Source of the DNA: an uncultured Rickettsiales bacterium
GTDB taxonomy: Bacteria > Pseudomonadota > Alphaproteobacteria > Micavibrionales > GCA-2720935
NCBI GenBank assembly: GCA_950054255.1
Contig: CATLOR010000001.1
Location: 839,589 to 903,588 of the forward strand
Length of the DNA: 64,000 nucleotides
Direction of reading: 5' to 3'
Both the position numbers and the translations under genes were made by a program. Of this stretch, positions 18,178 through 40,065 are shown in pieces; the first letter of the stretch is position 1; each line of letters begins with the position of its first letter. The notes beneath the pieces were generated by a model. The model saw only the letters and a program-made list of their open reading frames with translations, was not told where the DNA came from and did no database searches.

Positions 18178-19503
18178 TTAACGTTCACGCAAGGCTTCAT
18201 TTTTGGCTTTTAAAATTGGTTTTGCAAGATAGTCAAAAACAGATTTTTGTCCTGTTAAAATATCGACACTTGCTGTCATGCCTGGAATGATTGGTAGCTC
18301 TTTTCCTTTGTGTAAAAGAGATGTTTCTGGTGTCCTTAATAACACTTTGTAAAAGCTATTGCCTTCTTGATCTGTTGTTGTGTCGGCGCTAATATTTTCA
18401 ACCTGTGCTTTTAGGCCACCATAGATTGAAAAATCATAGGCAGTGATTTTAATAATAGCTTCTTGGCTTGGGCTAATGAATGCGATATCAGCAGGTTTGA
18501 TTTTGGCTTCAACAAGTAAAGTATCATTTAAAGGAACAATTTCCATGATCTCTTGTCCTGGCTGTAAAACGCCTCCAACTGTATTGATGAAGATGTCTTT
18601 GACACTGCCTTGAACGGGAGAGGTCACTTCGGTTCTTTTAACACGATCTTCCCCAGCACGCATAGCTTGTGCTAAAGATTCAAGCTCTGAGCGAACACTA
18701 TTTAAATCTTGAGATGCTTTTGAGCGTGCTTTTAACGAGATTTCTTTGATTTGTTTTTCTGTTTCACTGACAGCTGTTTGAGCGCGAGGAATAGACAGCT
18801 TAATAGTTCTAATTTCACCATCAATATCAGCCATATCCCCTTCTAAACGGATAAGGTCTAATTGCGGAACAAGGCCTTGTCTTACAAGGGGCTGTGTCAT
18901 GCCATATTCTCTTTGGACGACAGCGAGCTGACTTTCTAACTGGGAAAGACGAGAGCGCAATTCTTCAACTTCTTGACGACGCTGCTCTGCGCGTGATTGT
19001 AGCACCGATATTTCGGCATTAAGCTGTTCACGACTAATATTATATTGAGATGTTTCTTGCCTCACAGCCGTTGCGGCATCTTCTTTTAAATCAACAGGAA
19101 AACGGAGGCTATTTCCCGAAACTTCGGCTTCTAAGCGAATAACGCGCGCACGTAAATTATTATAGCGTGTCTTTTCTTCGCGGTAACTTGACTCAGCTGT
19201 TGAATTGTCAATACGAAGTAAGACATCTCCGACCTCGACAATATCACCAACATCAACAAGGATTTCTGATACAATACCACCTTCAAGGTTTTGAATAACT
19301 TTTGTACGACTAGATGGAATGACTTGCCCGTCACCGCGTGTAACTTCGTCTAAAATGGCATAGTGTGACCATGTAATGAAAGAGAGAATAAATGCTAAGA
19401 CAAAGAAAGAAAGAAAATAAGCAAGGCGTCCAGCATCACGGTGTGCTGCTGCTTGAACATCGCTCATAAAATCTAAATCTTCATGTTCTTTTTTTTCAAA
19501 CAT
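18178..19503 (-). CDS. Type I secretion membrane fusion protein (HlyD/LssD family)
   Basis: 441 aa with an N-terminal TM helix, a long coiled-coil, and C-terminal beta domains ending in the typical SVFDYLAKPI. It lies 3 nt downstream of the ABC gene. Confidence 0.9.
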   Translation of the reverse strand: MFEKKEHEDLDFMSDVQAAAHRDAGRLAYFLSFFVLAFILSFITWSHYAILDEVTRGDGQVIPSSRTKVIQNLEGGIVSEILVDVGDIVEVGDVLLRIDNSTAESSYREEKTRYNNLRARVIRLEAEVSGNSLRFPVDLKEDAATAVRQETSQYNISREQLNAEISVLQSRAEQRRQEVEELRSRLSQLESQLAVVQREYGMTQPLVRQGLVPQLDLIRLEGDMADIDGEIRTIKLSIPRAQTAVSETEKQIKEISLKARSKASQDLNSVRSELESLAQAMRAGEDRVKRTEVTSPVQGSVKDIFINTVGGVLQPGQEIMEIVPLNDTLLVEAKIKPADIAFISPSQEAIIKITAYDFSIYGGLKAQVENISADTTTDQEGNSFYKVLLRTPETSLLHKGKELPIIPGMTASVDILTGQKSVFDYLAKPILKAKNEALRER

Positions 19504-19506
19504 TTT

Positions 19507-21750
19507 TTATTTTGCCTCTTGTTTTGGTGAACGGATTTCTCCTTTTTGAAGGCGCTCAACAATTTCATCTTTGGGGCCATCTGCGATGATCTCACCTTGC
19601 TCAACAATGATTAAGCGATTGACGAGCTTTAACACAGAATGGCGATGTGTCATTAAGATAACCGTTTTATCTGCAATAATTTGTTCCATGCGTTGAATAA
19701 ATTTATTTTCTGTTGCTAAGTCCATATCGCTTGTCGGTTCATCTAATAATAAAATAGGTGGGTCACAGACCAGGGCGCGAGCAATCGCAATCGATTGTCT
19801 TTGGCCTCCTGATAATGCCATGCCGCGTTCACCAACATGAAGATCAAGACCTTGAGGTGTATGGCGTAAAAAGTCCATGCATCCTGAAAGTTTTGCGGCT
19901 CGTTTTACAGATTGTTCGTTAATATTTGGGGCGCCAAATGAAATGTTATCACGGACAGTCCCATAGAATAAGAAATTATCTTGAGTAACATAGCCAATAT
20001 TTTGACGAATATCTGCAGGGTCGAGCTGAGATAGGTTTGTGCCGTCAATCATGATCGTTCCTTCTGTTGGCTCGTATAGATTTGTTAACAGACGCCCAAT
20101 TGTACTCTTGCCAGATCCTATGCGCCCAAGAATACCAACACGTTCACCTGGGCGGATTTTTAGTGATAGGTTATCAATGCTAGGTATTTGTTGTTCTGGG
20201 TAATGAAAAGACACATCTTGAAATTCAATGGCACCTTGAATTTTTTCTAATGTGATAAAGTGTTTGTCTTGACCGCGCTCAATTTCTTTTTTCATGATTT
20301 CATCAAGAGCTTTAAGGCTGATTTTTGTTTGTTGATAGCGTGTGAGTAAGCTTGCCAAATTCGCAAGAGGTGCCATAGCACGTCCTGTTAACATAGTGGC
20401 GGCAACAAGTGCACCCATTGTTAAATTGCCTTCAGCAATTTCATAAACGCCATAAATAATGACCATCACAGTGGTGAATTGAAGCGCAAGGCTTGTGAAA
20501 CTCATTGCAACGGAAGACCAGCTACGCCCTTGCGCTGAAGATGTTGCTGTGAGGGCAACGATCCGTTCCCAAAGACCTTGGATTTTGCTTTCTGCGGTAT
20601 TTGTTTTGATTGTTTCCAAGCCGCTTAAGGCTTCGAATAAAAGGGCATATTTTTGACTGGACTCAGCATGACTTTTTTCAATAACGCGCATGAGTGGATA
20701 TTGCAAGACAAGGCCAACTAAGAGCACAATCGGGATTGTTGCAATTGGGATATAGGCCACAGGACCAGCAATCATCCAGATAATAGCTAAGAAAAGGAAC
20801 ATAAAGGGAAGGTCAATAAATAAAGTAACAGTCCCAGAGCTAAAGAAGTCACGTAAGGATTCAAAGTTCTTTAGATTGTTGGCCATGGATCCAGTTGATT
20901 TGGGGAGGTGCTGTAAACGAAGCCCCATAACATGTTCAAGTAAGCGACTTCCCATGATGGTATCGGCATTTTTACCTGCAACATCAATAAAATAACTCCG
21001 TAGGTTTTTAAGAATGAATTCAAATAAGTATACCAGACCAATACCAGCCGCTAAGACCCATAAGGTTTCAATAGCATTATTAGGAACAACACGGTCATAG
21101 ACGTTCATGACAAAAAGAGGGCCGGCAATTCCGAATAAATTAATCATAAATGAAGCAATTAAAACATGGATATAAATTTTCCAAAACTTTCTAAGCGTTC
21201 CCCAAAACCAATCTTTGCGCTCTTTTAAGCTGATATATTCTGCACGTTGATCAAGCTGTGCTTTTGGGCGTGCGAAAATGGCATAGCCTGTGTAATCCTC
21301 TTTTAAACGTTCAATCGAAATCTTTTTTGTTACACCATCACCTTCGGGTAACATGATTTCAACGTTCCGTTTCTTGCGATCAAAGCGGAGTAAAATGCAG
21401 GCATTTTTGTCTTTTAACAGTAAAATACAAGGCGTTACGAGGGATGAAATATCCGTGATTTTAGGTCGGTGGACAACGCGTGAAGAGAAACCAGCACGCT
21501 CAGCAGAACGGATAAAAAGCTCGGGTGTGAATTTTGTATCTGCGTTTGGAAGACCATTCTTTAAGGCCTGTTTAGAGACAGGGGATTGATAGAGGCTTGA
21601 AAGTAAAGCAAGGCAATTCAACAGAGGGCTTTCAAAATCCACTGAAGCAGGCGATATTTGCCACTGTTCAGCATCTTGCTGCTCAGGCTCTGTAACAGTT
21701 TGATCTATGTCTTTTTGTTCCTTACTCATACCGATATTTTTTGTGCACAT
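19507..21750 (-). CDS. Type I secretion ABC permease/ATPase with N-terminal C39-like domain (LssB/LapB class)
   Basis: 747 aa. N-terminal SPLLNCLALLSSLYQSPVS... peptidase-C39-like region, a 6-TM ABC domain, Walker A GRIGSGKST, signature LSGGQRQ, and Walker B ILLLDEPTS. Start could be ATG 21729. Confidence 0.9.
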   Translation of the reverse strand: MCTKNIGMSKEQKDIDQTVTEPEQQDAEQWQISPASVDFESPLLNCLALLSSLYQSPVSKQALKNGLPNADTKFTPELFIRSAERAGFSSRVVHRPKITDISSLVTPCILLLKDKNACILLRFDRKKRNVEIMLPEGDGVTKKISIERLKEDYTGYAIFARPKAQLDQRAEYISLKERKDWFWGTLRKFWKIYIHVLIASFMINLFGIAGPLFVMNVYDRVVPNNAIETLWVLAAGIGLVYLFEFILKNLRSYFIDVAGKNADTIMGSRLLEHVMGLRLQHLPKSTGSMANNLKNFESLRDFFSSGTVTLFIDLPFMFLFLAIIWMIAGPVAYIPIATIPIVLLVGLVLQYPLMRVIEKSHAESSQKYALLFEALSGLETIKTNTAESKIQGLWERIVALTATSSAQGRSWSSVAMSFTSLALQFTTVMVIIYGVYEIAEGNLTMGALVAATMLTGRAMAPLANLASLLTRYQQTKISLKALDEIMKKEIERGQDKHFITLEKIQGAIEFQDVSFHYPEQQIPSIDNLSLKIRPGERVGILGRIGSGKSTIGRLLTNLYEPTEGTIMIDGTNLSQLDPADIRQNIGYVTQDNFLFYGTVRDNISFGAPNINEQSVKRAAKLSGCMDFLRHTPQGLDLHVGERGMALSGGQRQSIAIARALVCDPPILLLDEPTSDMDLATENKFIQRMEQIIADKTVILMTHRHSVLKLVNRLIIVEQGEIIADGPKDEIVERLQKGEIRSPKQEAK

Positions 21751-21810
21751 GAATATCTATCGAATGATAGAAGTTATATCAACTTTAACGCTAAAGAGTT
21801 ACTGAAAAGT

Positions 21811-22506
21811 TTATTTTTTTATGCCTTGGCCTAGGGGGCGTTGTATTTTCATGATTCTAGGTGGTCTTTCATGAAGAGATGTTTGTAGCCAAACAATAAA
21901 ACTGATATGGCCACTATTTTCATGATGGAGAGGCGTGAAAACAGCTTTAGCCTCAAGTGAGACAGGTTTCACTTGTGTTAGATCTCGATAGGAAACAGAT
22001 AATGTCGCCGATCCTTGATGTCCAAATTTGATACGGTTCAAGAGTTCGCGAACAGATTGATTATCTTTAATGAGAAAAAAATCAGAAAATAAGCGTTCTC
22101 GTAATTTTGGTAGCTCTGTTTGCGCCCATTTAGAAAAACTTTCATTGGCATAAATAATGGTTTGGTTTTCGCTTAAGTGAAGACAAGGAATAGGAGCTTT
22201 ATCAAGAATAAAATAATTATGATCTTTATTGCCTAAGACATCTCTTTGAAGCATATGTTCCATTTCAGCAATAATAAAAGAACGCAGATAAGATGAAAAG
22301 TTTTTACTTTTATTTTTTTGCTTTAATAAAAACACCAACTCGTTTGTTTTTAAACGATATTTTCTTGATATTGTTTTTAGTGACCTAAGAAAAGGAGGTT
22401 CTAGGCGTACAGCTAAGCGTTGTCCTTCAAATTGATATATTTTAGGTTTTGGAGGCTCTATTGCAAACTCAATTAACCCGTGTGCGTTGTGTGTATCAAT
22501 ACTCAT
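21811..22506 (-). CDS. RHH_4-like ribbon-helix-helix domain fused to a PAS-like domain (putative regulator)
   Basis: N-terminus GQRLAVRLEPPFLRSLKTISRKYRLKTNELVFLL...NFSSYLRSFIIAEM parallels the RHH_4 protein at 1549-1911. The C-terminal half (PIPCLHLSENQTIIYANESFSKWAQ...ISFIVWLQ) looks like a PAS fold. It is divergent from the adhesin gene. Confidence 0.55.
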   Translation of the reverse strand: MSIDTHNAHGLIEFAIEPPKPKIYQFEGQRLAVRLEPPFLRSLKTISRKYRLKTNELVFLLKQKNKSKNFSSYLRSFIIAEMEHMLQRDVLGNKDHNYFILDKAPIPCLHLSENQTIIYANESFSKWAQTELPKLRERLFSDFFLIKDNQSVRELLNRIKFGHQGSATLSVSYRDLTQVKPVSLEAKAVFTPLHHENSGHISFIVWLQTSLHERPPRIMKIQRPLGQGIKK

Positions 22507-22637
22507 TTTTTAACCCTTTTTACCATATTTAATAATCATACATATTTATATAGTTTTAGTCAATGGAAATATTGAGATTGTTAATATATTCATGTTAAAA
22601 TGTCTCACAATTATAGATTTGAATAAGGAGCCCAGTT

Positions 22638-25600
22638 ATGACTGACCAATCAGTGGATTTAACAAATACAGGTAATGTAACGCAGGAAGCACTTTCTTTT
22701 GTGGAAAAAGATGGTGTTCAGGCTGTTCAGCTCTCTAAGCCAGAAGCGCCTAATGAAAAATTAAGCGTTAAAGCGACTGCAATCAACAAGATTGTTACTG
22801 ATTTCAATCCAGATGAAGTGGATGTTTCTTTACGAGAAGGCTCGCTTCTTTTTTCTTTTGATAATGGCGCTGTTATTGAAATTGAGGGATTTGCTTTAAT
22901 TGATCCGATGCCTGAAATTATTTTGGCAGACGGGACCATTATTGCCGGTGATGTCGTTGTTGCTCAATTGGGGGAAACGCTTGATCCTGATGAAGTTCAA
23001 GAGATGCTTCAACAAATTGAAACGGCTGCTGGTGGGCAACAATCGCCTTCAAATGACGGTTCTAGTTCTTATTCTGATGACTTTGGTGCTATTATCGATC
23101 TGTTATCTTTTTCTCCGCCGATTGGATTTGGTGCATTTTTGCGTAGCTTCACAGGTTTAGATGATCGTGAAGATGATGTTTTGTTAGCGCAACAGCAAAC
23201 TCTTGTTGATCCAACGCCAAGCGCGGATGATGTTTCGATCTCAGTTGATGAAACCGACTATGTGAATAATACACAAACACTCTCAGGTGTTTTACCTGTT
23301 GAATTCAATGGTCAGACAGGAACAGTTGAGCCATCGCCAACAGCTGGGTTTTTAGTTTCAGGATCTGTGTCAGCTGGAAGTCTAACATCTAATGGTCAGC
23401 CTGTGACAGTTTCTGTTCAAGGGGATCGCTATGTCGGAACCCTGCCTAACGGTACAACAGCTTTTGAAATGATCATTAATAATGATGCGACATACACATT
23501 TAATATATATGAGCAATTAGATCACGGTGATATTACAGATGTGAATGATCTCATGACATTTAGTTTTGGTTATATTGTAACAGATGCAACAGGAGATCAA
23601 ACAACAGCAACAATTGCTGTAAATGTCTTTGATGATGCACCTGTGGCAGCAAAAGAAACTTTAACCGTTGATGAAACGGGTGGTTTTAATTCTGTTTCGG
23701 GGCAATTAGATGCAGATTTAGGTGAAGATTCAGACGGAGCAAGCTTTGCGGGGAACGGATCATTTAATCTCAATAATGCGACATCAAATGGATTAGTTAT
23801 TACTACAGCATATTCAAACGGTACATATTACGGGGTCGCTTTTGGAAGCCCTGTTTTTGAGCTAACGATTAATACGGATGGCTCATATAGCTTTACCCAG
23901 CTTGGTCCAATTGATCACCCAGATGGCACAGACCCAGATGATGCTTTTGATGTTACATTTGGTTTTACCGTTACAGATGGTGATGGGGATACATCAGATG
24001 GAACAATTGTCGTAACAATTAAAGATGATGGTCCAGTTGCTCTTGATGATTCATTATCAGTTGATGAAGGGGCAACAGTTACAGGGAATGTGGTTGCTAA
24101 TGATTTATATGGCACAGATGGTGCTGGCCAAGTCATTTCTCTTGAAGGTCAACATGTAGCGTTAGGCGGTAGTGTAACGATTAACGGTCAATATGGTGTA
24201 TTGACACTGAACTCAGATGGGAGCTATTCGTACGCAGCCAATAGTAATACATCTCTAGATGGTGTTTTGACCGAAAGCTTTGCTTATACGATTGTTGATA
24301 ATGATGGAGATACAGCAAGTGCCTCGTTAAATCTGGAAATTGATTTTGGTGCTGACACAGTGCCGGTTTTCTTAAATGAATCAATTATAGTTGATGAAAC
24401 AGGTGGTTTTGACACTGTTAATGGTCAGTTAGATGTTGATTTTGGAGAAGATAGTGTTGGTGCTTTTACAGATGGAAATGGTCAATCAAATGTGAATAGC
24501 TTAACCTCAAATGGGAATGCTATTACTGTTAATTATAGCAATGGTACTTATACAGGTGTTGCTGGTGGTGTTTCTGTCTTTACTTTAACAATTAACAGCG
24601 ATGGTACATATAGCTTTACACAATTAGCAGCGATTGATCATCCAGACAGCAGTGATGATAATGATGCTGTTAATATGACATTTGGCTTTACAGCAACAGA
24701 CGGTGACGGCGACAGTGGCGATGGAACAATTACAGTCACTGTATTAGATGACGGCGTTGATATTTTCCCGGCTCTAGGAATTGTTGATGAAACAAATGGG
24801 TTTACAACAGGCGTTTCTGGATCAGTTGATTTTGATTATGGCGCAGATGGTGCTGGAGAGCTTCATTTAGGAGATGCAGCGCATCATGTTTCTTTCCAAG
24901 TGATTGGTGGGCATGCCTTAACATCTGATGGTCAGCCAGTAACAGTGACATTACAAAACGGCTCTTATGTGGGGTCGGTAAATGGCTCTGTTGTGTTTGA
25001 ATTAAGTTTAGATGCTCAAGGCAATTATTCTTATGAGCAATATCAACCATTGGATCACCCAGATAGTTCTGATACCAATGATGCTCTTGGTTTAGAGTTT
25101 GGCTTCACTGTTCAAGACAATGATGGTGATACTGTTGAATCAACAATCGTTATTAATGTTTTAGATGATGGGCCTGTTGCAAGTGCGGATGTGAATTCAA
25201 AAACACTTTCTGGTGTAGATGACCTTATTACAGGAAATGTTGTGACGGGTGCGAATGGTGGTACGAATGCCTCTGATTCATATGGGTCTGATGGTGCTGG
25301 TCATGTATCTCGCATCGAAAGCCCAACAGGACAGGTCTTAGCAATTGCAGATGGCCAAACAGTTACGATTGATGGCCAATATGGGGCATTGACGATTTCA
25401 TCGGATGGTAGCTATAGCTATGATTTATATGACTCATTAGCATCTACAGGTTCAGGTGGTTCGTCGAATAATAATTCGAATACGAATACGGGTTCTAATA
25501 ACACGAATACAAACTCGGGTGGCTCTTCATCCAGTACAAGCACGAGCACATCGACTTCAACATCGACTTCGACAGGATCTGGTTCGTCACAAACTTATAC

Positions 25601-28600
25601 AGAGCGTTTTGAATATACAATTATTGATAATGATGGTGATACCGTTGAAACAACATTAACAATTAATGCAACTTTGGACGCTACACCTGATCCAGACGAT
25701 CAACCAGATGTTGATAATGCTTCAAATCTTGTTGATGAAACAGGTGGTTTTGATACGGTTTCAGGACAATTGGTTGCAGATTTTGGAAATGACGCGGCAG
25801 GATCAAGTTTTGACGGGAATGGCCAATCGAATACAAACGGCTTAACTTCGAATGGTCAAGCAATTGCTGTTACTTATAATAATGGAGTTTACACAGGTGT
25901 TGCAGGTGGTGTTTCTGTCTTTACGTTAACGATTAATAGCAATGGATCTTATAGCTTTACACAATTAGCAGCGATTGATCATCCAAACACAGGAAACCCA
26001 GATGACGCCGTTGATTTAACATTCGGTTTTACAGCGACAGATGGCGATGGTGACAGTGGAGATGGTGTAATTACTGTCACTGTGCGTGACGATGGCCCAA
26101 CGGCTGTGAATGATAGTGCCTCTGCCTCAGAGGGAACAACAGTAACAGGTGATGTCGTTGCGAATGACAGTTACGGCTTTGATGGTGCTGGACGTGTGAC
26201 ACAAATTTCTGGTCAAGCAATTGCTGAGGGCGGTAGTGTCACGATTAATGGTCAATATGGTGTATTAACCCTGAACTCAGACGGAAGTTATTCTTACACA
26301 GCCAATACAAACACATCTTTAGAAGGTATTCGCAGTGAAAGCTTCGCTTATACAATTGTTGATAATGATGGCGATAGTGCAAATGCGACATTAACGCTTG
26401 ATATTGATTTTGGTGGGGATAGTGTTCCTATTATAACAAATGAAGCGATTACAGTTGATGAAACAGATGGCTTTGACACTATTAATGGTCAACTTGATGT
26501 TGATTTTGGTGAAGATAGTGCGAATGCAAGCTTTGATGGGAATGGCCAATCGAATACAAACGGCTTAACTTCGAATGGTCAAGCAATTGCTGTTACTTAT
26601 AATAATGGAGTTTACACAGGTGTTGCAGGTGGTGTTTCTGTCTTTACGTTAACGATTAATAGCAATGGATCTTATAGCTTTACACAATTAGCAGCGATTG
26701 ATCATCCAAACACAGGAAACCCAGATGACGCCGTTGATTTAACATTCGGTTTTACAGCGACAGATGGCGATGGTGACAGTGGAGATGGTGTAATTACTGT
26801 CACTGTGCGTGACGATGGCCCAACGGCTGTGAATGATAGTGCCTCTGCCTCAGAGGGAACAACAGTAACAGGTGATGTCGTTGCGAATGACAGTTACGGC
26901 TTTGATGGTGCTGGACGTGTGACACAAATTTCTGGTCAAGCAATTGCTGAGGGCGGTAGTGTCACGATTAATGGTCAATATGGTGTATTAACCCTGAACT
27001 CAGACGGAAGTTATTCTTACACAGCCAATACAAACACATCTTTAGAAGGTATTCGCAGTGAAAGCTTCGCTTATACAATTGTTGATAATGATGGCGATAG
27101 TGCAAATGCGACATTAACGCTTGATATTGATTTTGGCGGGGATTCAACACCAATTATAACAAATGAAGCAATTCAAGTTGATGAAACAGGTGGCTTTGAC
27201 ACTATTAATGGTCAGCTTGATGTTAACTTTGGTGAGGACGCAGTAGGTGCAAGCTTTAATGGAAATGGTCAATCGAATGTGAGTGGCTTGACATCAGATG
27301 GGCAGCCTATAGCCGTGTCTTATAACAATGGGACGTATACGGGTTCTGCTGGTGGATCAACTGTATTTACTTTAAAGATTAACAGTGATGGAAGTTATAC
27401 ATTTAAGCAATTAGCAGCTGTTGATCATCCAAATACGCATAATCCAAATGATGCTGTTAATATTCGATTTGGTTATAGAGCAACAGATGGGGATGGTGAT
27501 AGTGCAAATGGCACGATAACAGTTACGATTAAGGATGATGGTCCTGCGGCTCGTGCAGATGTGAATACAAGAACACTTTCTGGTGTGGATGATCTTATTA
27601 CAGGAAATGTTGTGACTGGAACAAATGGCGGTGCGAATGCTTCTGATTCATATGGATTTGATGGAGCTGGTCATGTTTCTCGTATCGAAAGCCCAACAGG
27701 ACAGGTCTTAACAATTACAGATGGTCAAACAGTTACGATTGACGGTCAATATGGTGTTTTGACCATTTCATCAGATGGTAACTATAGTTATGATATCTAT
27801 GATTCATTAAGTACTTCTGGTTCATCTTCGAACAATAATACGAATAATAACTCTAATTCAGGCGGAAGTGGTTTATCTTCTAGTTCGAGCTCGAGCTCTA
27901 GTAATGGTGGTTCAAATTCAGGAAATTCATCACAAACCTATACAGAGCGTTTCGAATATACGATTGTTGATAATGATGGTGATACTGTTGAAACAACATT
28001 AACGATTAATGCAACTTTGAGTGTTACAACAGGTCCAGATGATCAACCAGATGTTGATAATGCTGCAAATGTTGTCGATGAAACAGGTGGTTTTGATACA
28101 GTTTCAGGACAATTGGTTGCAGATTTTGGAAATGACGCGGCAGGGTCAAGCTTTAACGGGAATGGTCAATCCAATGCAAATGGCTTAACTTCTAATGGTC
28201 AACCAATTGCTATTACATATAGTAATGGGACTTACACCGGTGTTGCTGGTGGTGTTTCTGTCTTTACATTGACGATTGGTAGCAATGGATCTTATAGCTT
28301 TACGCAGCTTGCTCCGATTGATCACCTGAATGCAAGTAACCCGAATGATGCTGTTAACTTTACATTTGGTTTCACAGCGACAGACGGTGATGGTGATACA
28401 GGTGATGGCACGATTACAATCACGGTCTTTGATGATGGTCCTCAAGCAGGGTATCAAGCGATTCAATTGCTAGAAGAAGATGATTTGAATACGACATTTG
28501 TTGGCAATCTATTCCGTGATTTTGGCGCAGATGATGTGGGTGGGTACGTATTTGCAGGGGATTCAAATGCAAACTCTGCTTTCTCATTCACAGGTATTAA

Positions 28601-29276
28601 TGCTTTGACTGTAAATGGTCAGGCTGTATCGGTTACATTGCACAATAATGTCTATACAGGAACTGCAGGGGGTGTCACTGTTTTCACATTAGAGATTGAT
28701 GATAATGGCGGCTATGAATTTACATTATTTGAAGCTTTTGATTATGATGATTCCTCTCAAGATGGTGAAATTGTTCATTTAGACTTTGGCTACGCTGTTG
28801 AAGATGGTGATGGGGATATTGACGTTGGCTCTATTCGTGTTTCGGTCGTTGAGGGCGATGAGCAAGTTAATATTATCATCGGAACGCCAGACAATGATGT
28901 TTTAATTGGAACGGATATTAATGATATTATTTATGGTGAAGGCTGTGCTGATATCATGGAAGGTGGTGCGGGTGCTGATACATTCGTAATGGCGGATGTT
29001 GGAGAGCATAACCGTGATATTATCTCTGACTATGATATTAATGAAGGAGATGTTATTGACTTATCTGATTTGATTGATCCGCAAAGTTTTACAGGGGATT
29101 TATCAGATTATCTAGCTTTTGATGAATCTGTAAGCACGCTGCATGTGGATGCAACAGGGCAGGGTCAGTTTAGCGATGATACACAAGCTGTTTTAATTGG
29201 TGACGTGGATGCTGGGGATACGATTGCTGTAAAAATTGGTGATCAAATCTTGGATGTAAATGTCGATAGTATTTAA
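22638..29276 (+). CDS. Giant (2212 aa) type I-secreted repeat adhesin-like protein
   Basis: AAGGAG RBS. N-terminal module followed by TAAG at residues 129-132. About 9 units start VDET(G/D)GF...TINSDGSYSFTQL..IDHP...FGFTATDGDGDS..G.ITVTV.DDGP (T1SS-143-like). These alternate with VCBS/cadherin-like units (INGQYGVLTLNSDGSYSYTAN...FAYTIVDNDGDSA). There are two S/T/N-rich linkers and C-terminal RTX-like nonapeptides (GTPDNDVLIGTDINDIIYGEGCADIMEGGAGADTF). The acidic C-terminal tail has DVIDLSDLI, typical of T1SS C-terminal target domains. Confidence 0.9.
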   Translation: MTDQSVDLTNTGNVTQEALSFVEKDGVQAVQLSKPEAPNEKLSVKATAINKIVTDFNPDEVDVSLREGSLLFSFDNGAVIEIEGFALIDPMPEIILADGTIIAGDVVVAQLGETLDPDEVQEMLQQIETAAGGQQSPSNDGSSSYSDDFGAIIDLLSFSPPIGFGAFLRSFTGLDDREDDVLLAQQQTLVDPTPSADDVSISVDETDYVNNTQTLSGVLPVEFNGQTGTVEPSPTAGFLVSGSVSAGSLTSNGQPVTVSVQGDRYVGTLPNGTTAFEMIINNDATYTFNIYEQLDHGDITDVNDLMTFSFGYIVTDATGDQTTATIAVNVFDDAPVAAKETLTVDETGGFNSVSGQLDADLGEDSDGASFAGNGSFNLNNATSNGLVITTAYSNGTYYGVAFGSPVFELTINTDGSYSFTQLGPIDHPDGTDPDDAFDVTFGFTVTDGDGDTSDGTIVVTIKDDGPVALDDSLSVDEGATVTGNVVANDLYGTDGAGQVISLEGQHVALGGSVTINGQYGVLTLNSDGSYSYAANSNTSLDGVLTESFAYTIVDNDGDTASASLNLEIDFGADTVPVFLNESIIVDETGGFDTVNGQLDVDFGEDSVGAFTDGNGQSNVNSLTSNGNAITVNYSNGTYTGVAGGVSVFTLTINSDGTYSFTQLAAIDHPDSSDDNDAVNMTFGFTATDGDGDSGDGTITVTVLDDGVDIFPALGIVDETNGFTTGVSGSVDFDYGADGAGELHLGDAAHHVSFQVIGGHALTSDGQPVTVTLQNGSYVGSVNGSVVFELSLDAQGNYSYEQYQPLDHPDSSDTNDALGLEFGFTVQDNDGDTVESTIVINVLDDGPVASADVNSKTLSGVDDLITGNVVTGANGGTNASDSYGSDGAGHVSRIESPTGQVLAIADGQTVTIDGQYGALTISSDGSYSYDLYDSLASTGSGGSSNNNSNTNTGSNNTNTNSGGSSSSTSTSTSTSTSTSTGSGSSQTYTERFEYTIIDNDGDTVETTLTINATLDATPDPDDQPDVDNASNLVDETGGFDTVSGQLVADFGNDAAGSSFDGNGQSNTNGLTSNGQAIAVTYNNGVYTGVAGGVSVFTLTINSNGSYSFTQLAAIDHPNTGNPDDAVDLTFGFTATDGDGDSGDGVITVTVRDDGPTAVNDSASASEGTTVTGDVVANDSYGFDGAGRVTQISGQAIAEGGSVTINGQYGVLTLNSDGSYSYTANTNTSLEGIRSESFAYTIVDNDGDSANATLTLDIDFGGDSVPIITNEAITVDETDGFDTINGQLDVDFGEDSANASFDGNGQSNTNGLTSNGQAIAVTYNNGVYTGVAGGVSVFTLTINSNGSYSFTQLAAIDHPNTGNPDDAVDLTFGFTATDGDGDSGDGVITVTVRDDGPTAVNDSASASEGTTVTGDVVANDSYGFDGAGRVTQISGQAIAEGGSVTINGQYGVLTLNSDGSYSYTANTNTSLEGIRSESFAYTIVDNDGDSANATLTLDIDFGGDSTPIITNEAIQVDETGGFDTINGQLDVNFGEDAVGASFNGNGQSNVSGLTSDGQPIAVSYNNGTYTGSAGGSTVFTLKINSDGSYTFKQLAAVDHPNTHNPNDAVNIRFGYRATDGDGDSANGTITVTIKDDGPAARADVNTRTLSGVDDLITGNVVTGTNGGANASDSYGFDGAGHVSRIESPTGQVLTITDGQTVTIDGQYGVLTISSDGNYSYDIYDSLSTSGSSSNNNTNNNSNSGGSGLSSSSSSSSSNGGSNSGNSSQTYTERFEYTIVDNDGDTVETTLTINATLSVTTGPDDQPDVDNAANVVDETGGFDTVSGQLVADFGNDAAGSSFNGNGQSNANGLTSNGQPIAITYSNGTYTGVAGGVSVFTLTIGSNGSYSFTQLAPIDHLNASNPNDAVNFTFGFTATDGDGDTGDGTITITVFDDGPQAGYQAIQLLEEDDLNTTFVGNLFRDFGADDVGGYVFAGDSNANSAFSFTGINALTVNGQAVSVTLHNNVYTGTAGGVTVFTLEIDDNGGYEFTLFEAFDYDDSSQDGEIVHLDFGYAVEDGDGDIDVGSIRVSVVEGDEQVNIIIGTPDNDVLIGTDINDIIYGEGCADIMEGGAGADTFVMADVGEHNRDIISDYDINEGDVIDLSDLIDPQSFTGDLSDYLAFDESVSTLHVDATGQGQFSDDTQAVLIGDVDAGDTIAVKIGDQILDVNVDSI
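25443..25589 (+). repeat. Low-complexity Ser/Thr/Asn-rich linker inside the adhesin gene (copy 1)
   Basis: Encodes STGSGGSSNNNSNTNTGSNNTNTNSGGSSSSTSTSTSTSTSTSTGSGSS, including an (AGC/ACN/TCN) dipeptide-type microsatellite. Confidence 0.85.
25815..27136 (+). repeat. Perfect 599-bp direct duplication with 723-bp period inside the adhesin gene
   Basis: 25815-26413 is base-for-base identical to 26538-27136 (checked line by line). The first mismatches are C/T at 25814/26537 and T/C at 26414/27137. The period of 723 bp (241 aa) keeps the frame. Confidence 0.9.
27810..27932 (+). repeat. Low-complexity Ser/Asn/Gly-rich linker inside the adhesin gene (copy 2)
   Basis: Encodes STSGSSSNNNTNNNSNSGGSGLSSSSSSSSSNGGSNSGNSS. 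It is the positional equivalent of the linker at 25443-25589 in the ~2.37-kb super-repeat. Confidence 0.85.
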
Positions 29277-29382
29277 TGTCATAAATCTTATAAAACAGCA
29301 TTTTATTTTTTAATTGAATACTGTATAGTGACCGTCTAGAATAAGTGAACGTAATTTTTATGAATCTTAGAGGGTCTCTATT

Positions 29383-30750
29383 GTGTTGAAAAAAACTAAT
29401 TATTTAAAAACGTTAAAGCAATCTGTTTGTTCGGCGGCCTTAGCGGGGTTTTTGATCTTTTCGCCATCTGCTCATGGAACAACATTGGAGCAAGCGATTG
29501 AGATAGCAATTGAGCACAATCCTCGTATCGGTGTTGTTGCGAGAAACCAAGAAGCGGTTGTAGAAGAGTTACATCAAGCAGAAGGGCTGTATTTACCCTC
29601 AGTTGATATTTCAGCAGGTGTCGGTGTTGAAGATACAAGCACACCAGCTGTTCGTGCAGGTAATAATGGCGAATCAGAAGGTCTTCTTGCAACCGATGCG
29701 ACACTCACAATTACTCAAGATTTATTCGATGGATATGAGCGTCAAGGACGTGTTGAACGTCAAAAAGCGCGTATCGAATCGGCTTCTAATAGAGTGTATG
29801 AAAACTCAGAGAATTTAGCACTTGATGTTGTTGGTGCTTATTTAGATGTTATCCGTCAAAGAGAGCTGCTTGCTCTTGCGCGTGAAAATGTGGCTTTCCA
29901 CGTTGAAACACTTGAAGCTTTGGTTAAGAGATTACGTGGTGGAATTGGAACGCGTGCAGATGTTATTCAAACACAGGCACGTTTAGCACGTTCTCGTGCG
30001 ACATTTGTTTCAACAAATAATGATTTAGCGGATGCTGAAGCACTCTATACGCGTTTAGTGGGGCAATATCCAGGCGACTTAGTACTTCCTTCTACTGTTG
30101 AAGATATGATGCCAGCGTCTATGGATGAACTGGTTCAAATGGCAACGATTGATAACCCAACGGTTAAGATTTCAGAAGCTGATGTGAAAGTTGCAAATGC
30201 CGATGTGAATATTTCAGAAGCTGAATTTTATCCTCAAGTATCTCTCCAAGCATCAAGCACGTATGATGAGCGAAAAGATGGGGTGAATACGTATACATAT
30301 CAAAACATTCTAGGATTACGTATGAACTGGAACATCTTTAATGGTGGAACGGACCGCGCAACACGCCAAGAATTCTTAATGCGTGAAGAACAAAGTAAAA
30401 GTCAGCGTTATGATGCTATTTTAGAGGCGCAACAGCAGGCTAGACGTTCTTGGTATGCTTATGTTGCCGCAGGTCAGCAATTACAAGAATTAAGCTCTGC
30501 TGTTATCTTTAACCAGCAAACACGTGAAGCTTATGAACAACAATTCCAAGTCGATCAAAGAACACTCTTAGATGTGTTGGATGCTGAAAATGAGCTCTTT
30601 ACGTCACGTGGACAATTAATATCAGCAGATATTAACAAAATCTTGTCATCTTATCGTATTTTGGCTGTTGCTGGTAAATTGTTAAGATCTTTGAATGTGT
30701 CCGCGCCACAGCAGGCTTTCGAGGCAGTTTTGTACAGTCAAGACGATTGA
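29383..30750 (+). CDS. tolC: TolC-family type I secretion outer membrane protein
   Basis: 455 aa with a GTG start and a signal peptide. TLEQAIEIAIEHNPRI opening and two OEP repeats. Confidence 0.9.
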   Translation: MLKKTNYLKTLKQSVCSAALAGFLIFSPSAHGTTLEQAIEIAIEHNPRIGVVARNQEAVVEELHQAEGLYLPSVDISAGVGVEDTSTPAVRAGNNGESEGLLATDATLTITQDLFDGYERQGRVERQKARIESASNRVYENSENLALDVVGAYLDVIRQRELLALARENVAFHVETLEALVKRLRGGIGTRADVIQTQARLARSRATFVSTNNDLADAEALYTRLVGQYPGDLVLPSTVEDMMPASMDELVQMATIDNPTVKISEADVKVANADVNISEAEFYPQVSLQASSTYDERKDGVNTYTYQNILGLRMNWNIFNGGTDRATRQEFLMREEQSKSQRYDAILEAQQQARRSWYAYVAAGQQLQELSSAVIFNQQTREAYEQQFQVDQRTLLDVLDAENELFTSRGQLISADINKILSSYRILAVAGKLLRSLNVSAPQQAFEAVLYSQDD

Positions 30751-30858
30751 TTCCATAAAAAAATACGTTTTTTTTCATTTTTTTGCAGACAAACGCGATT
30801 AATTTTGCCATAATATACGAAGAGGAAATGCAAATTTCCTCTGGCTTCCTTACTATGG

Positions 30859-30905
30859 CCTGGGTGTCGATCTAATTTTTGATCGGTGCCCCGGTCTTTT
30901 ATTTT
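30859..30905 (+). terminator. Rho-independent terminator-like hairpin downstream of tolC
   Basis: 14-position stem CCTGGGTGTCGATC / GATCGGTGCCCCGG (13 pairs including 3 G-U, 1 mismatch) with an 8-nt loop, followed by TCTTTTATTTTG. Confidence 0.55.
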
Positions 30906-31028
30906 GCCTAAAATAGGCGCTGTTATCATTTATTTTTAAAGATTATCCTTGGTAAATCGTTGAAAGATCGTTATTCTAAAGTGCGTCGTTTAATGCGCTT
31001 GTATTTTCTTATTTTTAAGGTTTCTCAT

Positions 31029-33107
31029 ATGGATACACACTCTTCAGATCAAGATTTATCAACATTTGAATATAAAAAACCAAAAGAAGCAAAAATAGCT
31101 GCGAAATCAAAATTGTTTGGTTTGTTGGTTTTACTCGTTTTGGTTTTAGGTAGTTTCTTTATTGCTAACCAGATTATCAAAGAAGAAAAGAATAATTTAG
31201 AGCAGCATTTAAAACAGCAAATAGAAGTCCTAACATTAGAGCGGTCAAATGTTATTTCTGAGTGGTTAGCGGGGATTTTGAAACAATCCCGTTCAATTAC
31301 AAAAAATGATATTTTTAGATTATATGCGGTTGAGCAAGATTCTAAGAAAGAAGAAGGTAAAGACACGGTCTCTAAATATGCTGATCAATTACCTTATATG
31401 ATTAATGCCTTGAGTGACTTTGTTCAAGATACGGAATATCGCGGAGCGTATATGTTGAATAGGGATGGTGAAACATTTTTAGCAAGTATGGATTCTCGCC
31501 CTTTGGATAATGAACAGAAATTAGAAGCTCTTCGCTTGTTTGATAATGGTCAGGCATCATATTCTGTCGTTCGCTCACGTGATGAAGGACTGGAATTTGA
31601 TTTATTTGTACCAGTGTTCCCTGTTGATGAAACAGCGGGATCAAATAAAATTTCAGCGATTTTTGTTTTTACAATTCCTGTTAAAGAGCAATTTAAGCTG
31701 CTTTTACATGATAAGCCTGTCAATGGTGTTGAGGGCAGTTACTCTTTGTTTCAAAGAACATTTGATGCAAAGATACAAGAAGTTCGCTTGATTAATGGCG
31801 AAACAATATTAGACAGTGCCTTGCCAATTTCTGTGTTTTCAACGCCAACATTGAGTTTTGGTAAAAGAGCAGATTTTAATGGAAGCGCAAATGTCTATTC
31901 TTTTGGAGCGGCTATTCAAGCGACGCCTTTTTATCTTGTGTGGCAAACACCAGAAGATGTTGCAAATGCTCAGATTGATAAATTTATTTTGAATACATAT
32001 CTTGTTGCGATTTTCTTTGTGTTATCGCTTGTAACAGCATTTGGTGCGTTTTGGTGGCGTAATAATAGTGATCATAACAAAGTTCTAGCTGAACAATATG
32101 CTAAATTTGCTCATAAATTGGGTAAACAAAAAATGGTTCTAGATAGCATTAATAATACGATTAAAGAATTTATTACACTTAAAGATCGCTACGGAAAATA
32201 TATCTATGTTAATCCGGCTTTTGCTGAGGCTGTGGGGTCAAGTGTGGAGAATATTTTAGGGCAGGATGATGCCTCGATATTAGGGCATGGAACAGCGATG
32301 AAATTGGAAAAACTGGATGATTTAGTGATTTCTTCTAAAGAAGCTTTGTCTGTTGTTGATGAGATTTATTTGCAAGGTGAAAAACGTCATCTCCAAATTT
32401 CAAAATTCCCCTATTTATCAGAAGATGAAGGTGAAGAAGAACGGAATATTATTACGGTAGCTAGGGATATTACAGACTTAGTAGAAGAGCAAGCTCGTCG
32501 TGAAAAGTCAACAAAGCAAACGGTTCTAGCTTTAATTCGCGCAGTTGAATTAAGAGATCCTCATTTAGCGGGGCATTCTAAAAGAGTGGCGGAGATCGCA
32601 TCACTTGTTGCAAATGAGATTAAGCCTGATCCTCGTATCAGACGCACAGTAGAGATTGCTGCGACCTTATCACAAGTTGGTAAACTTGACATCCCATCAG
32701 AGATTTTAACATCTGAAAAAAGATTATCAGATGAGCAGTTTGAAATCATGAAACGCCATGTTGGGAATGCAGAGAAAATTATTACAGATATTGATTTTGA
32801 TGTCCCAGTTTTAACAGCCATTAGCCATATGTATGAGCGTTTAGATGGGAGCGGTTATCCGCGTGCTATCCATGATGATGAAGTGTCTTTGGAAGGGCGT
32901 ATTTTAGGGGTATGTGATTATTTTTGTGCACGTATCGAACCTCGCTCATACAGGCAAGCGATTTTACCTAAGGATGCTTTGAAATATCTGGAACAGAATA
33001 GTAAGAGATACGATCCTAAAGTTGTACAAGCGCTGAGAACTGTAATTCATTCTTCTGTTGGTGAGCGAATTATTGCTTCTGTTGTTGCTTCACATAAAGA
33101 TATGTAA
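31029..33107 (+). CDS. Transmembrane sensor protein: periplasmic domain, PAS, HD-GYP domain with substituted HD dyad
   Basis: Start set at ATG 31029 (AAGG RBS). TM1 LFGLLVLLVLVLGSFFIANQII, about 270 aa periplasmic, TM2 YLVAIFFVLSLVTAFGAFWW, then PAS (LDSINNTIKEFITL...ITVARDITD). The HD-GYP-like domain has GHSKRV...AATLSQVGKLDIP...KRHVGNAEKI...SHMYERLDGSGYP. LSQVGK occupies the position of the family LHDIGK. Confidence 0.8.
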   Translation: MDTHSSDQDLSTFEYKKPKEAKIAAKSKLFGLLVLLVLVLGSFFIANQIIKEEKNNLEQHLKQQIEVLTLERSNVISEWLAGILKQSRSITKNDIFRLYAVEQDSKKEEGKDTVSKYADQLPYMINALSDFVQDTEYRGAYMLNRDGETFLASMDSRPLDNEQKLEALRLFDNGQASYSVVRSRDEGLEFDLFVPVFPVDETAGSNKISAIFVFTIPVKEQFKLLLHDKPVNGVEGSYSLFQRTFDAKIQEVRLINGETILDSALPISVFSTPTLSFGKRADFNGSANVYSFGAAIQATPFYLVWQTPEDVANAQIDKFILNTYLVAIFFVLSLVTAFGAFWWRNNSDHNKVLAEQYAKFAHKLGKQKMVLDSINNTIKEFITLKDRYGKYIYVNPAFAEAVGSSVENILGQDDASILGHGTAMKLEKLDDLVISSKEALSVVDEIYLQGEKRHLQISKFPYLSEDEGEEERNIITVARDITDLVEEQARREKSTKQTVLALIRAVELRDPHLAGHSKRVAEIASLVANEIKPDPRIRRTVEIAATLSQVGKLDIPSEILTSEKRLSDEQFEIMKRHVGNAEKIITDIDFDVPVLTAISHMYERLDGSGYPRAIHDDEVSLEGRILGVCDYFCARIEPRSYRQAILPKDALKYLEQNSKRYDPKVVQALRTVIHSSVGERIIASVVASHKDM

Positions 33108-33198: not shown

Positions 33199-34200
33199 AT
33201 GAAGAGAATTTTTTCACACGCTATTATATGTGGTTTAGGCCTGTCATTAATGGTTTCTCATGCAGGAGATGTAAAAGCTGAATCTGATATTTTCGGAGGT
33301 ATTTACGATTTTGATTCTGCTGAAGGGAAATCGTCATATGGAACAGTGTTTAATCAAAACTTATATAAAGGTTATTATGAGCTTTCATTAGAGTTACGTG
33401 GTATTACAAATTCAATTGATACAGAACTTTTTAATCATAAAGCATTACTTGCCTCAAAAGGATCGCCTGTTGACCCTGATCAAGTGATGGATAGAGAGTT
33501 GTATCCAGAAGAAAAAACAGTTTTCCAAGATGCGCTTTTCCGTCTTTATGACGCATACGCTAAAGGAGGAAAAGAGTTTGCTCCAGCATTATCAGCAACA
33601 GCTCAGGTCAGTTTTGATTGTTGGATTGAGGCAACGGAAGATGGTGCAACGATTTATGCAACAGAGTGTCGTGACCGCTTTGAAAAAGCTCTTACAAATA
33701 TTGAACGCGTTGCGAATAAAGATATTGTAGCAATTACGGTATCTCCACCATTGCGCGCAATCGAAGTACCTGTGGAGCCTGTTGTTGCTGTTGTGGAGCC
33801 TGTTCCTGTGCCTGAAATTATTGAACCTGTTGTTGATGAAATCCCTCAAGAGGTTTTGGATCAATATATTACAATTCCTTTTGAGTTTGATAAAACAAAG
33901 TTTGCCTCTGGTGGTGAAGAGAGTTTAAAGAAAGCATTAGATGCTTTAAATGCGTATGAGCGTTTAAATGTTGAGTTGATTGCTCATGCGGATAGAGCTG
34001 GTCCTGCTGCTTATAATAAGAAATTATCACAACGTCGCGCGGACGCAGTTCTTGCACGCTTGATTAAAGAAGGTATTGGCGAGAGCCGTATTAAGCTTGT
34101 TGAAGCTGTTGGTGAAGAGAAATCCCTTTTCCCAACAAAAGACGGCGTTCCTTCGCAAGAAAACCGTGTAGTTGAGCTTGATCTTGTAAAAGCAGAGTAA
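33199..34200 (+). CDS. OmpA-family protein (alphaproteobacterial type with FDCW N-domain, Pro-rich linker, OmpA_C domain)
   Basis: Start at ATG 33199 after AAGGAAAG. Signal peptide MKRIFSHAIICGLGLSLMVSHA. Linker VPVEPVVAVVEPVPVPEIIEPV. C-terminus FEFDKTKF...LIAHADRAGPAAYNKKLSQRRADAV. Confidence 0.85.
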   Translation: MKRIFSHAIICGLGLSLMVSHAGDVKAESDIFGGIYDFDSAEGKSSYGTVFNQNLYKGYYELSLELRGITNSIDTELFNHKALLASKGSPVDPDQVMDRELYPEEKTVFQDALFRLYDAYAKGGKEFAPALSATAQVSFDCWIEATEDGATIYATECRDRFEKALTNIERVANKDIVAITVSPPLRAIEVPVEPVVAVVEPVPVPEIIEPVVDEIPQEVLDQYITIPFEFDKTKFASGGEESLKKALDALNAYERLNVELIAHADRAGPAAYNKKLSQRRADAVLARLIKEGIGESRIKLVEAVGEEKSLFPTKDGVPSQENRVVELDLVKAE

Positions 34201-35190: not shown

Positions 35191-35223
35191 AGACACACAT
35201 TCTAAGTGTGTTTCCTTTTTTTT
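35191..35223 (+). terminator. Rho-independent terminator after gshB copy 1
   Basis: 8-bp stem AGACACAC/GTGTGTTT with a 7-nt loop, followed by CC and T8. It lies inside the GTG-extended ORF-track version of the next gene. Confidence 0.65.
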
Positions 35224-35244
35224 ATCTATCCAAAAGACGCAGAC

Positions 35245-39425: not shown

Positions 39426-39514
39426 GAGGATCCTCCTGATTCATATAAAATTATAGAGTGATTTGCCCTATAAAACCAAAGACTTTTTTAGATTTTTTCT
39501 TTATTTTTCAAGGA

Positions 39515-39982
39515 TTAAAAGTTCGCAGTTATTTCAACTTCACCTGTGTAAGCGCCATCAGAATAATAATTTCCATTTCCCGATGTGGATAGGGTTGTTC
39601 CGACATTAAAGGTTGCGGATCCGCCTGGATCTGTTGTGATTGTTGCAGGGTCTGTGACGGCATCTGATATTGAAAAATATTGTGGTCCTATACCATCATG
39701 AAGGACATCTGTTGCCGCAAAGCTAACGGTAATTGTTGTGTTGCCGGGGAAGCTTTGTAGTCGAATACGGGCGGAGTCACCATCTGATAGGACGACAATA
39801 TGGCTTGGGTTGGCTGTAATATCACCGTTTGGAGCGATAATGAGATCGCGTGGAGCGTCATTATCGACGATTGTGAGGTCGCCATAAATAAATTGTCTTA
39901 ACACATCAATAGTTTGTGCCGTTGCCGTAAGGGGGGCAAGGCTTACGAGTGTTAAGAATGTTATAAGGGCATATTTTTTCAT
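39515..39982 (-). CDS. DUF4402-like secreted subunit (155 aa, putative minor pilin)
   Basis: Start moved to ATG 39982 (MKKYALITFLTLVSLAPLTATAQT). Beta-rich, ending GSATFNVGTTLSTSGNGNYYSDGAYTGEVEITANF. Confidence 0.65.
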   Translation of the reverse strand: MKKYALITFLTLVSLAPLTATAQTIDVLRQFIYGDLTIVDNDAPRDLIIAPNGDITANPSHIVVLSDGDSARIRLQSFPGNTTITVSFAATDVLHDGIGPQYFSISDAVTDPATITTDPGGSATFNVGTTLSTSGNGNYYSDGAYTGEVEITANF

Positions 39983-40011
39983 TGATCCTATAGTAGGCGA
40001 TTCTAACAAAG

Positions 40012-40043: not shown

Positions 40044-40065
40044 AAAATTCTTATATTTACAGATA

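Follow-up and report, generated by a model that had tools for sequence, protein, structure and literature searches.

A DvhD-type receptor without an adjacent protease gene in the adhesin locus of a marine alphaproteobacterium

The closest described relative of the system treated here is that of Desulfovibrio vulgaris Hildenborough, reported by Karbelkar et al. (PNAS 2024; PMC10990149) and Font et al. (Nat Commun 2026; PMC13090378). Its receptor, DvhD (DVU1020), is an inner-membrane protein with a periplasmic dCache domain and cytoplasmic PAS and HD-GYP domains (PMC10990149, PMC13090378), and it carries SQ in place of the HD pair and MN in place of the HH pair of HD-GYP proteins (PMC13090378). 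Each DvhD dimer binds three molecules of cyclic diguanylate (c-di-GMP), with high affinity, in the absence of metal, and without hydrolyzing them. DvhD also renders DvhG, a LapG-like BTLCP protease, responsive to c-di-GMP, and it is thus a functional analogue of LapD for the type I secretion system (T1SS) adhesins DvhA and DVU1545 (PMC10990149, PMC13090378). Structures of DvhD are available (PDB 9RC0, 9RBZ, and 9RC2), and c-di-GMP is its preferred ligand in solution (PMC13090378). Here we describe a locus with a DvhD-type receptor gene, but with no dvhG gene beside it, in a 64-kb stretch of DNA (contig CATLOR010000001.1, positions 839,589 to 903,588; hereafter, the window).

How DvhD restrains DvhG is, in the words of the published model, "a hitherto unknown mechanism." The published phylogenetic mapping of DvhD took in solely organisms with both DvhD and DvhG, cultured alphaproteobacterial genera with both proteins (e.g., Kiloniella and Pelagibius) are found in the supplementary data of PMC13090378, and no DvhD locus without DvhG is described in PMC10990149 or PMC13090378. 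An earlier, sequence-only reading of the window had implied that an HD-GYP receptor in a Lap-type system would be new. That idea is already known, from the 2024 publication of DvhD and from the 2026 crystal structures with SQ in place of HD, and what is peculiar to this locus is the absence of dvhG beside the receptor gene. We consider it about two-thirds probable that the locus is a Dvh-type (Lap-like) adhesin system with a DvhD-type receptor whose partner protease is encoded elsewhere in the genome.

A full-length relative of DvhD

The receptor gene (31029-33107, plus strand) encodes a protein of 692 amino acids with a transmembrane (TM) helix, a periplasmic region of ~270 residues, a second TM helix, a PAS domain (PAS_4, E = 7e-12), and a degenerate HD-GYP domain (HD_5, E = 2e-41). 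An alternative TTG start at 30960 would give a protein of 715 amino acids. The layout agrees with the one drawn in the sequence-only reading, to which sequence matches and Foldseek add that the periplasmic region is a dCache domain.

Comparisons of both sequence and predicted structure lead to DvhD. When the HD-GYP region was compared with the PDB by phmmer, the best match was chain 9RC0_A, annotated as "HD domain/sensory box protein" (E = 4e-47, 220 residues without gaps), which also has LSQVGK, and the periplasmic region alone matches the DvhD dCache chain 9RC2 (E = 3.7e-15). A profile made from 13 family sequences matches 9RC0 (8e-126), 9RBZ (1e-82), and 9RC2 (5e-64). The same three entries are the top three Foldseek matches in the PDB for an AlphaFold2 model of the receptor (mean predicted local distance difference test score of 81), with target-normalized TM-scores (TMt) of 0.76 to 0.88. 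Against the DvhD HD-GYP domain, the model has a TMt of 0.86 at 40% identity, and against the DvhD dCache domain, it has a TMt of 0.88 and a root mean square deviation of 2.8 Å at 25% identity. Over its full length, the receptor is 30 to 33% identical to its relatives in the Desulfovibrionaceae. Judged from sequence and from this model, the 692-amino-acid protein is clearly a full-length homologue of DvhD (DVU1020), an orthologue-grade relative. The LapD-like nucleotide-receptor role that the sequence-only reading had proposed for it is supported by this homology, since that role has been demonstrated experimentally for DvhD. Membership in the LapD type itself was rejected: Pfam finds no LapD_MoxY_N, HAMP, GGDEF, or EAL domain in the receptor or in any other open reading frame (ORF) of the window of at least 120 amino acids.

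The catalytic motifs of the HD-GYP domain are degenerate in the same way as those of DvhD. LSQVGK is encoded at 32667-32684, and by translation and family alignment, the Ser-Gln codons at 32670-32675 (plus strand) stand in place of the His-Asp metal ligands; the GYP-region motif, HMYERLDGSGYP, is encoded at 32826-32861. In pairwise alignments with the active enzymes PmGH (4MCW) and V-cGAP3 (5Z7C), SQ lies opposite HD and MY lies opposite HH. All 83 of the 83 family members compared have (S/A/C)Q in the HD column and M followed by N, Y, or H in the HH column, and the DvhD family as a whole shares the motifs LSQxGK and M(Y/N)ExLDGSGYP. The loss of the metal-binding His-Asp pair, which had been read from the window sequence, is borne out by these alignments, and the receptor does not have the metal-ligand set of an active HD-GYP phosphodiesterase. 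The comparisons strongly support the conclusion that the receptor has lost catalysis.

In the nucleotide-binding site, the core ligand contacts are retained, and several others differ. Residues were mapped by a gapless alignment in which the DvhD number is the window number plus 11, and this mapping was verified on all eleven ligand-contact residues named in PMC13090378 for the 9RBZ structure. The c-di-GMP contacts L577, Y621, R650, and Y652 of DvhD are kept in the window as L566, Y610, R639, and Y641, and the family shows little or no variation at these four positions.

The adhesin locus and its relatives

The ABC, HlyD, and TolC genes of a T1SS and an adhesin gene lie together with the receptor gene within 13 kb. 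The adhesin gene (22638-29276, plus strand) encodes a 2,212-amino-acid LapA/DvhA-like repeat protein that contains, by Pfam and NCBIfam, nine DUF5801/T1SS-143 repeats, Big_9 and Cadherin_4 domains (bacterial Ig-like and cadherin-like), a match to the BapA/Bap/LapF family, and a T1SS C-terminal target domain (TIGR03661) at residues 2127 to 2196. The exporter gene (19507-21750, minus strand) encodes an LssB-type T1SS ABC permease/ATPase, the equivalent of DvhB/LapB, which scores 973 bits against TIGR03375 (cutoff, 693) and has Pfam matches to Peptidase_C39, ABC_membrane, and ABC_tran, the first of these marking a C39-like N-domain at residues 43 to 164. The DvhC/LapC equivalent is an HlyD-family periplasmic adaptor (18178-19503, minus strand; HlyD_3; TIGR01843, 390 bits), whose syntenic counterpart in the related locus L008 is 66% identical, and the DvhE/LapE equivalent is a TolC-family outer-membrane channel (29383-30750, plus strand; OEP, E = 7e-55; TIGR01844, 293 bits). 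These four genes had all been recognized from the sequence, and Pfam and NCBIfam agree with their assignments. The conserved unit is larger than the gene set then listed, in that it also has a regulator gene with RHH_4 and PAS domains and a gene for an OmpA-like protein.

The adhesin carries a predicted cleavage site for a LapG/DvhG-type protease. By experiment, the LapG/DvhG site has the consensus [T/A/P]AAG, with the scissile bond between the two alanines (PMC13090378). The translation of the adhesin gene has T-A-A-G at residues 129 to 132 (23022-23033, plus strand), in the context DPDEVQEMLQQIETAAGG (residues 116 to 133). The N-terminal domain of the adhesin is homologous to the adhesin N termini of the canonical DvhDG loci L050, L033, and L043, and it keeps DP...ETAAG; (I/M)ETAAG is found at the equivalent position in the adhesins of canonical Halodesulfovibrio and Desulfovibrio loci. 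In the L008 adhesin, IETAAG is kept despite a diverged flanking linker. Taken from sequence, then, the adhesin appears to be of the retained LapA/DvhA-like type, with an N-terminal retention domain, a predicted [T/A/P]AAG site, and a C-terminal T1SS signal.

The host is not the gammaproteobacterium that the framing of the sequence-only reading around Legionella and Pseudomonas would imply. SecA places it in the Alphaproteobacteria; the best named relatives of its SecA are Rhodospirillales, at 64 to 66% identity, and metagenomic relatives reach 73 to 93%. Metagenome-assembled genomes of relatives carry inconsistent labels (Rickettsiales and Bdellovibrionales). The loci closest to the window come from TARA Oceans and other marine assemblies, and the guanine-plus-cytosine (GC) content of the window is ~39%. 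The host lineage of this Dvh-type switch is thus one of uncultured marine Alphaproteobacteria with low GC content that is common in ocean metagenomes.

Across the DvhD family, the receptor gene and the protease gene are close to inseparable. When GTDB species representatives were scanned with the family alignment, 80 loci were returned, from the Alphaproteobacteria (Kiloniellaceae, Pelagibius, Inquilinus, Sneathiella, and Fodinicurvata), the Desulfovibrionales, the Desulfuromonadales, and a few others; Font et al. list the same genera in their supplementary data (PMC13090378). The window species is not represented among the loci returned. The usual order is ABC-HlyD-C93-DvhD (C93 being the family of BTLCP proteases such as LapG and DvhG), in all 74 of the 74 more distant family loci that include upstream sequence, the ORF just upstream of the receptor gene is C93, and T1SS ABC and HlyD genes are linked to the receptor gene in most of the family loci compared. 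When metagenome loci were collected with a C93 alignment instead, a DvhD gene followed C93 in nearly all of them (at least 80 loci). Five metagenome loci (L099, L116, L144, L148, and L157) have a high-GC DvhG-type C93 gene that is followed by 2.8 kb or more of DNA without any DvhD-like gene.

The window belongs to a clade that is monophyletic in a neighbor-joining tree and has a layout of its own. (L001 to L003 carry one identical receptor protein, and L004 is the window sequence from another assembly.) In this clade, HlyD, ABC, and RHH-PAS genes are on one strand and adhesin, TolC, DvhD, and OmpA-like genes are on the other, followed 3' of ompA by an M48 peptidase gene (in most members), gshB, a C26 amidotransferase gene, and a second gshB. 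In the window, the OmpA-like gene most likely spans 33199-34200 (plus strand); its product is a putative peptidoglycan-binding protein with a signal peptide (OmpA, E = 1e-14) that begins MKRIF..., and the orthologue in L171 is called at 333 amino acids. An OmpA-like gene is directly downstream of the receptor gene in L001, L007, L008, L087, L088, L089, and L171. A Peptidase_M48 gene follows ompA in L001 (13234-14478), L088 (6863-8095), L089 (7005-8198), L008 (13106-14386), and L007, and it is absent from the window and from its two closest relatives, L087 and L171, in which ompA abuts gshB; this absence is a second lineage-specific gene loss at the adhesin locus. The earliest-branching clade member, L088 (49% identity), has the order adhesin-TolC-C93-DvhD-OmpA-M48. 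A comparison of gene neighborhoods, which the sequence-only reading had named as a check on its proposal, thus finds the colocalization of receptor, T1SS, and adhesin genes conserved in both the clade and the family.

In the window, the protease gene is missing. Neither Pfam applied to ORFs of at least 120 amino acids, nor tblastn with two C93 queries, nor an iterated hidden Markov model (HMM) made from 76 DvhG sequences and run on the six-frame translation finds a C93/LapG gene in the 64 kb, in agreement with the absence of a LapG-like gene noted previously. The receptor gene therefore does not have the adjacent BTLCP/C93 partner, dvhG, that is typical of the family. The 278-bp gap between tolC and dvhD in the window is the position that the C93 gene occupies in L088. 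Since L088 keeps C93 at this site and the other clade members are without it, the most economical explanation is that dvhG was lost once from between tolC and dvhD, after L088 branched off.

Where the protease might be, and what the receptor may bind

Two lines of evidence suggest that a LapG-type protease may still act in the window organism: the conserved cleavage site in the adhesin and the conserved periplasmic domain of the receptor. The ratio of periplasmic to HD-GYP identity is 0.67 in pairs of receptors from dvhG-less loci versus 0.65 in canonical pairs of similar divergence. In addition, canonical proteins have 20 periplasmic columns with a conservation of at least 85%; 14 of these are kept, among them those of the invariant QLPxM helix. 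By these sequence measures, the periplasmic domain is not decaying and is still constrained. The likeliest location for the protease gene would be elsewhere in the genome.

Several observations weigh against this reading. No C93 gene was found within ~10 kb, contig permitting, of the receptor gene in L001 to L003, L007, L008, L087, L089, or L171, and no remnant of a C93 pseudogene was detected in the tolC-dvhD gap of the window. When the C93 protein of L088 was used as a query, none of the best 120 matches listed (at least 175 bits) was assignable to the window organism; the best relative (51% identity) sits in a canonical locus. Among the at least 80 metagenome loci, there was no low-GC C93 gene without a DvhD neighbor and none from the window lineage, and a single-protein C93 metagenome scan gave no match. 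The other points concern the receptor and its expression. Four ligand-contact residues of DvhD are altered in the window (Y523 to H512, K582 to F571, M646 to R635, and E668 to N657), and in the bridging site, R569 is replaced by E558, P556 is kept, and R stands for K. Finally, the terminator-like hairpin (30862-30891) and T-tract that lie in the tolC-dvhD gap (together 30862-30905, plus strand), where the sequence-only reading had seen a hairpin plus U-tract, leave cotranscription of the receptor gene with the adhesin and tolC genes in doubt. Judged from the hairpin, the receptor and ompA genes may be transcribed apart from the adhesin and tolC genes; hairpin-plus-T-tract sites in the region are no commoner than in shuffled sequence.

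One possible explanation for the failure to find the protease is that it has been lost altogether from the clade and that the DvhD-type receptor works without it, its dCache domain controlling another periplasmic partner, e.g., the OmpA-like peptidoglycan anchor, the T1SS itself, or another protease such as M48. An adjacent C93 gene is missing from 8 of the 9 clade loci, although 74 of 74 loci elsewhere have one, and the best 120 matches listed include no close DvhG orthologue that could be assigned to the window organism. Every clade member has the OmpA-like gene as the next gene downstream, an arrangement hardly ever seen in canonical loci, and an M48 gene follows in L001, L007, L008, L088, and L089. 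However, ETAAG is kept in two dvhG-less lineages in the same form as in canonical substrates, an observation not easily reconciled with the lack of a LapG-type protease. M48 and OmpA stand alongside C93 in L088, which indicates that they are not replacements for it, and M48 is absent from the window, L087, and L171; we therefore rejected the idea that the M48 peptidase has taken the place of the protease. The searches beyond the window for a C93 gene at another site extended to the matches listed and were not exhaustive; within that scope, they are weak evidence that the protease may be absent. We regard a receptor working without any BTLCP protease as unlikely, and a protease encoded elsewhere as roughly three to four times likelier than no protease. 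We are similarly doubtful of the wider proposition that the clade's receptor has become uncoupled from a BTLCP protease, either because the protease was lost and the dCache domain serves another partner or because the pair acts in trans from separate loci. There is no precedent among other DvhD proteins for a pair encoded in trans.

A second alternative accepts the architecture of the receptor and supposes that it is tuned to another cyclic dinucleotide, such as 3'3'-cyclic GMP-AMP. The substituted contacts are what favor it: at the position of E668, which specifies guanine in DvhD, the window clade has Asn or Ser, and the residues at K582, M646, and Y523 differ as well. However, all four altered contact positions also vary among members of the family that are linked to DvhG, and the window residues themselves are common there, with R at M646 in 30 of 76 and N at E668 in 23 of 76. 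The invariant clamp and phosphate contacts are retained, and DvhD prefers c-di-GMP in solution (PMC13090378). A change of ligand is therefore improbable. Because the core contacts are kept and the altered ones fall within the variation of protease-linked members, nucleotide binding by the window receptor is likely.

A third alternative is hardly credible, namely, that the protein is an HD-GYP phosphodiesterase (active or of the "trigger" type) or an unrelated chemosensor with a dCache domain that stands beside a T1SS by chance. In its favor, the first His (GHS), H577, E603, and DGSGYP are retained, a His at position 600 lies beside the MY pair, and small ligands are what dCache folds like the periplasmic one usually bind. 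Against it, the whole family has other residues in place of the HD dyad and of both HH residues, and most relatives have Gln where the window protein has H600. DvhD, which carries the same substitutions, lacks both bound metal and phosphodiesterase activity (PMC13090378), and chance adjacency is excluded because the T1SS linkage is conserved across Alphaproteobacteria, Desulfovibrionales, and Desulfuromonadales.

Under the preferred reading, that of a Dvh-type switch with its protease encoded elsewhere, the LssB-type ABC transporter, the HlyD adaptor, and TolC would export the 2,212-amino-acid adhesin, and the N-terminal retention domain would keep the adhesin plugged in TolC. The later steps are modeled on experiments with DvhD, from which c-di-GMP binding, the absence of hydrolysis, and control of a protease by the window receptor would also follow. 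The receptor would form a dimer in the inner membrane and bind c-di-GMP, without a metal, through its catalytically dead HD-GYP domain. This binding would splay the stalk helices between PAS and HD-GYP, and an "inside-out" signal would pass through the PAS domain and the TM helices to the periplasmic dCache domain. At high c-di-GMP levels, the dCache domain would restrain a BTLCP/C93 protease of the LapG/DvhG type; at low c-di-GMP levels, this protease would release the adhesin by cutting it at ETA|AG, distal to the retention domain. The partner protease would be supplied from elsewhere in the genome, the ancestral dvhG having presumably been lost from between tolC and dvhD.

Neighboring genes and comparison with described systems

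Divergent from the adhesin gene is the gene (21811-22506, minus strand) for the putative transcription regulator with an RHH_4 domain (E = 4.5e-8) and a weak match to PAS. It is found at the same site in L008, and RHH-PAS homologues are also present in the alphaproteobacterial DvhDG loci L011, L013, L015, L060, and L080. Synteny by itself suggests that this regulator and the OmpA-like protein may be part of one functional unit with the adhesin system. A second RHH_4 (PF13467) protein of 120 amino acids is encoded elsewhere in the window (1549-1911), where it stands alone beside a DUF2889 gene. Rfam finds no c-di-GMP riboswitch or other RNA element in the adhesin locus, and control of the locus by such an element was rejected; the only Rfam matches in the window are a transfer RNA and the ffh small RNA, both outside the locus. 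The latter (RF01793; 58524-58575, minus strand) scores 40 bits versus a gathering score of 35 and lies immediately upstream of ffh (SRP54; 56947-58488).

Directly downstream of the adhesin locus, in every clade member with that stretch, are two paralogous glutathione-synthetase-like ATP-grasp genes (34208-35152 and 36000-36968 in the window) that flank a gene for a Peptidase_C26/class I glutamine amidotransferase (35206-36003). This trio may be a small module for the synthesis and hydrolysis of gamma-glutamyl peptides. A 229-amino-acid ORF (37057-37746) without a Pfam match weakly matches, in NCBIfam (E = 1e-8), the HD (hydrolase) region at the N terminus of RelA/SpoT; on the strength of that match, it may encode a small alarmone hydrolase-like protein, and it is present in L007, L087, and L171 and absent from L001. 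Next to it is a cluster (37765-44101), syntenic in all relatives, that resembles a chaperone-usher pilus system. It encodes a 281-amino-acid protein with a weak AMIN match (37765-38610), a protein with a weak match to PapD-like chaperones (38607-39425), two DUF4402 proteins (39515-40030 and 40066-40647), and a divergently transcribed 1,040-amino-acid protein with weak SdrD_B and CarboxypepD_reg matches (40979-44101). Five ORFs have no Pfam match at an E value of ≤0.01: 4600-6207 (535 amino acids), 47807-49576 (589), 44112-44561 (149), 47252-47695 (147), and 55280-55840 (186). They sit among genes for a xerD-like integrase, accA, a class I aminoacyl-tRNA synthetase of the tRNA-synt_1 family, a clpP-like gene, argS, and rimM-trmD-rplS.

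These results place a Dvh-type switch in a marine low-GC alphaproteobacterial lineage and identify a natural clade that has split or lost the dvhG-dvhD pair, near-obligate elsewhere, and that still conserves the periplasmic domain of the receptor and the cleavage site of the adhesin. Since the mechanism by which DvhD restrains DvhG has been called "hitherto unknown," this clade could serve as a comparative test for functions of the dCache domain beyond protease binding.

Among the other degenerate or noncatalytic HD-GYP proteins, Bd1817 of Bdellovibrio (PDB 3TM8) resembles the window receptor in having an HD-GYP fold with altered signature residues. Its match to the family profile is weak (E = 6e-8), and the window receptor is far nearer to DvhD (8e-126); unlike the window receptor, Bd1817-like proteins have no dCache domain, no TM helices, and no T1SS linkage.

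The DvhD system and the window locus have in common the TM-dCache-TM-PAS-HD-GYP architecture, SQ for HD, M(N/Y) for HH, the family-invariant c-di-GMP contacts, and genetic linkage to T1SS genes and to the gene for a LapA-like adhesin in which a TAAG site accompanies the N-terminal retention domain. They differ in that dvhG (C93) is adjacent in the Dvh system and nothing of the kind is beside the window receptor gene. The gene order in the window is adhesin-tolC-dvhD-ompA with divergent ABC and HlyD genes, whereas that of the Dvh system is ABC-HlyD-dvhG-dvhD, and the OmpA-like gene downstream of the receptor gene is a feature of the window, unlike the Dvh system. The non-invariant ligand contacts H512, F571, R635, N657, and E558 are unlike those of DvhD. 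DvhA has a vWA and a serralysin-like domain (PMC10990149), neither of which was found in the window adhesin, with its DUF5801/T1SS-143 repeats. The hosts differ as well, a low-GC marine alphaproteobacterium in the one case and Desulfovibrio in the other.

In comparison with the Lap system (LapD/LapG/LapA of Pseudomonas fluorescens; BpfD/BpfG of Shewanella), the window receptor is unrelated to LapD in sequence and domains, with dCache instead of LapD_MoxY_N and with no HAMP, GGDEF, or EAL domain, and it is also without the LapD-type tryptophan dock (described in PMC13090378). Even so, the same regulatory logic would be expected for the window locus, i.e., that of a catalytically dead inner-membrane receptor that controls a periplasmic BTLCP protease, which in turn releases a TolC-plugged adhesin at a di-alanine site.

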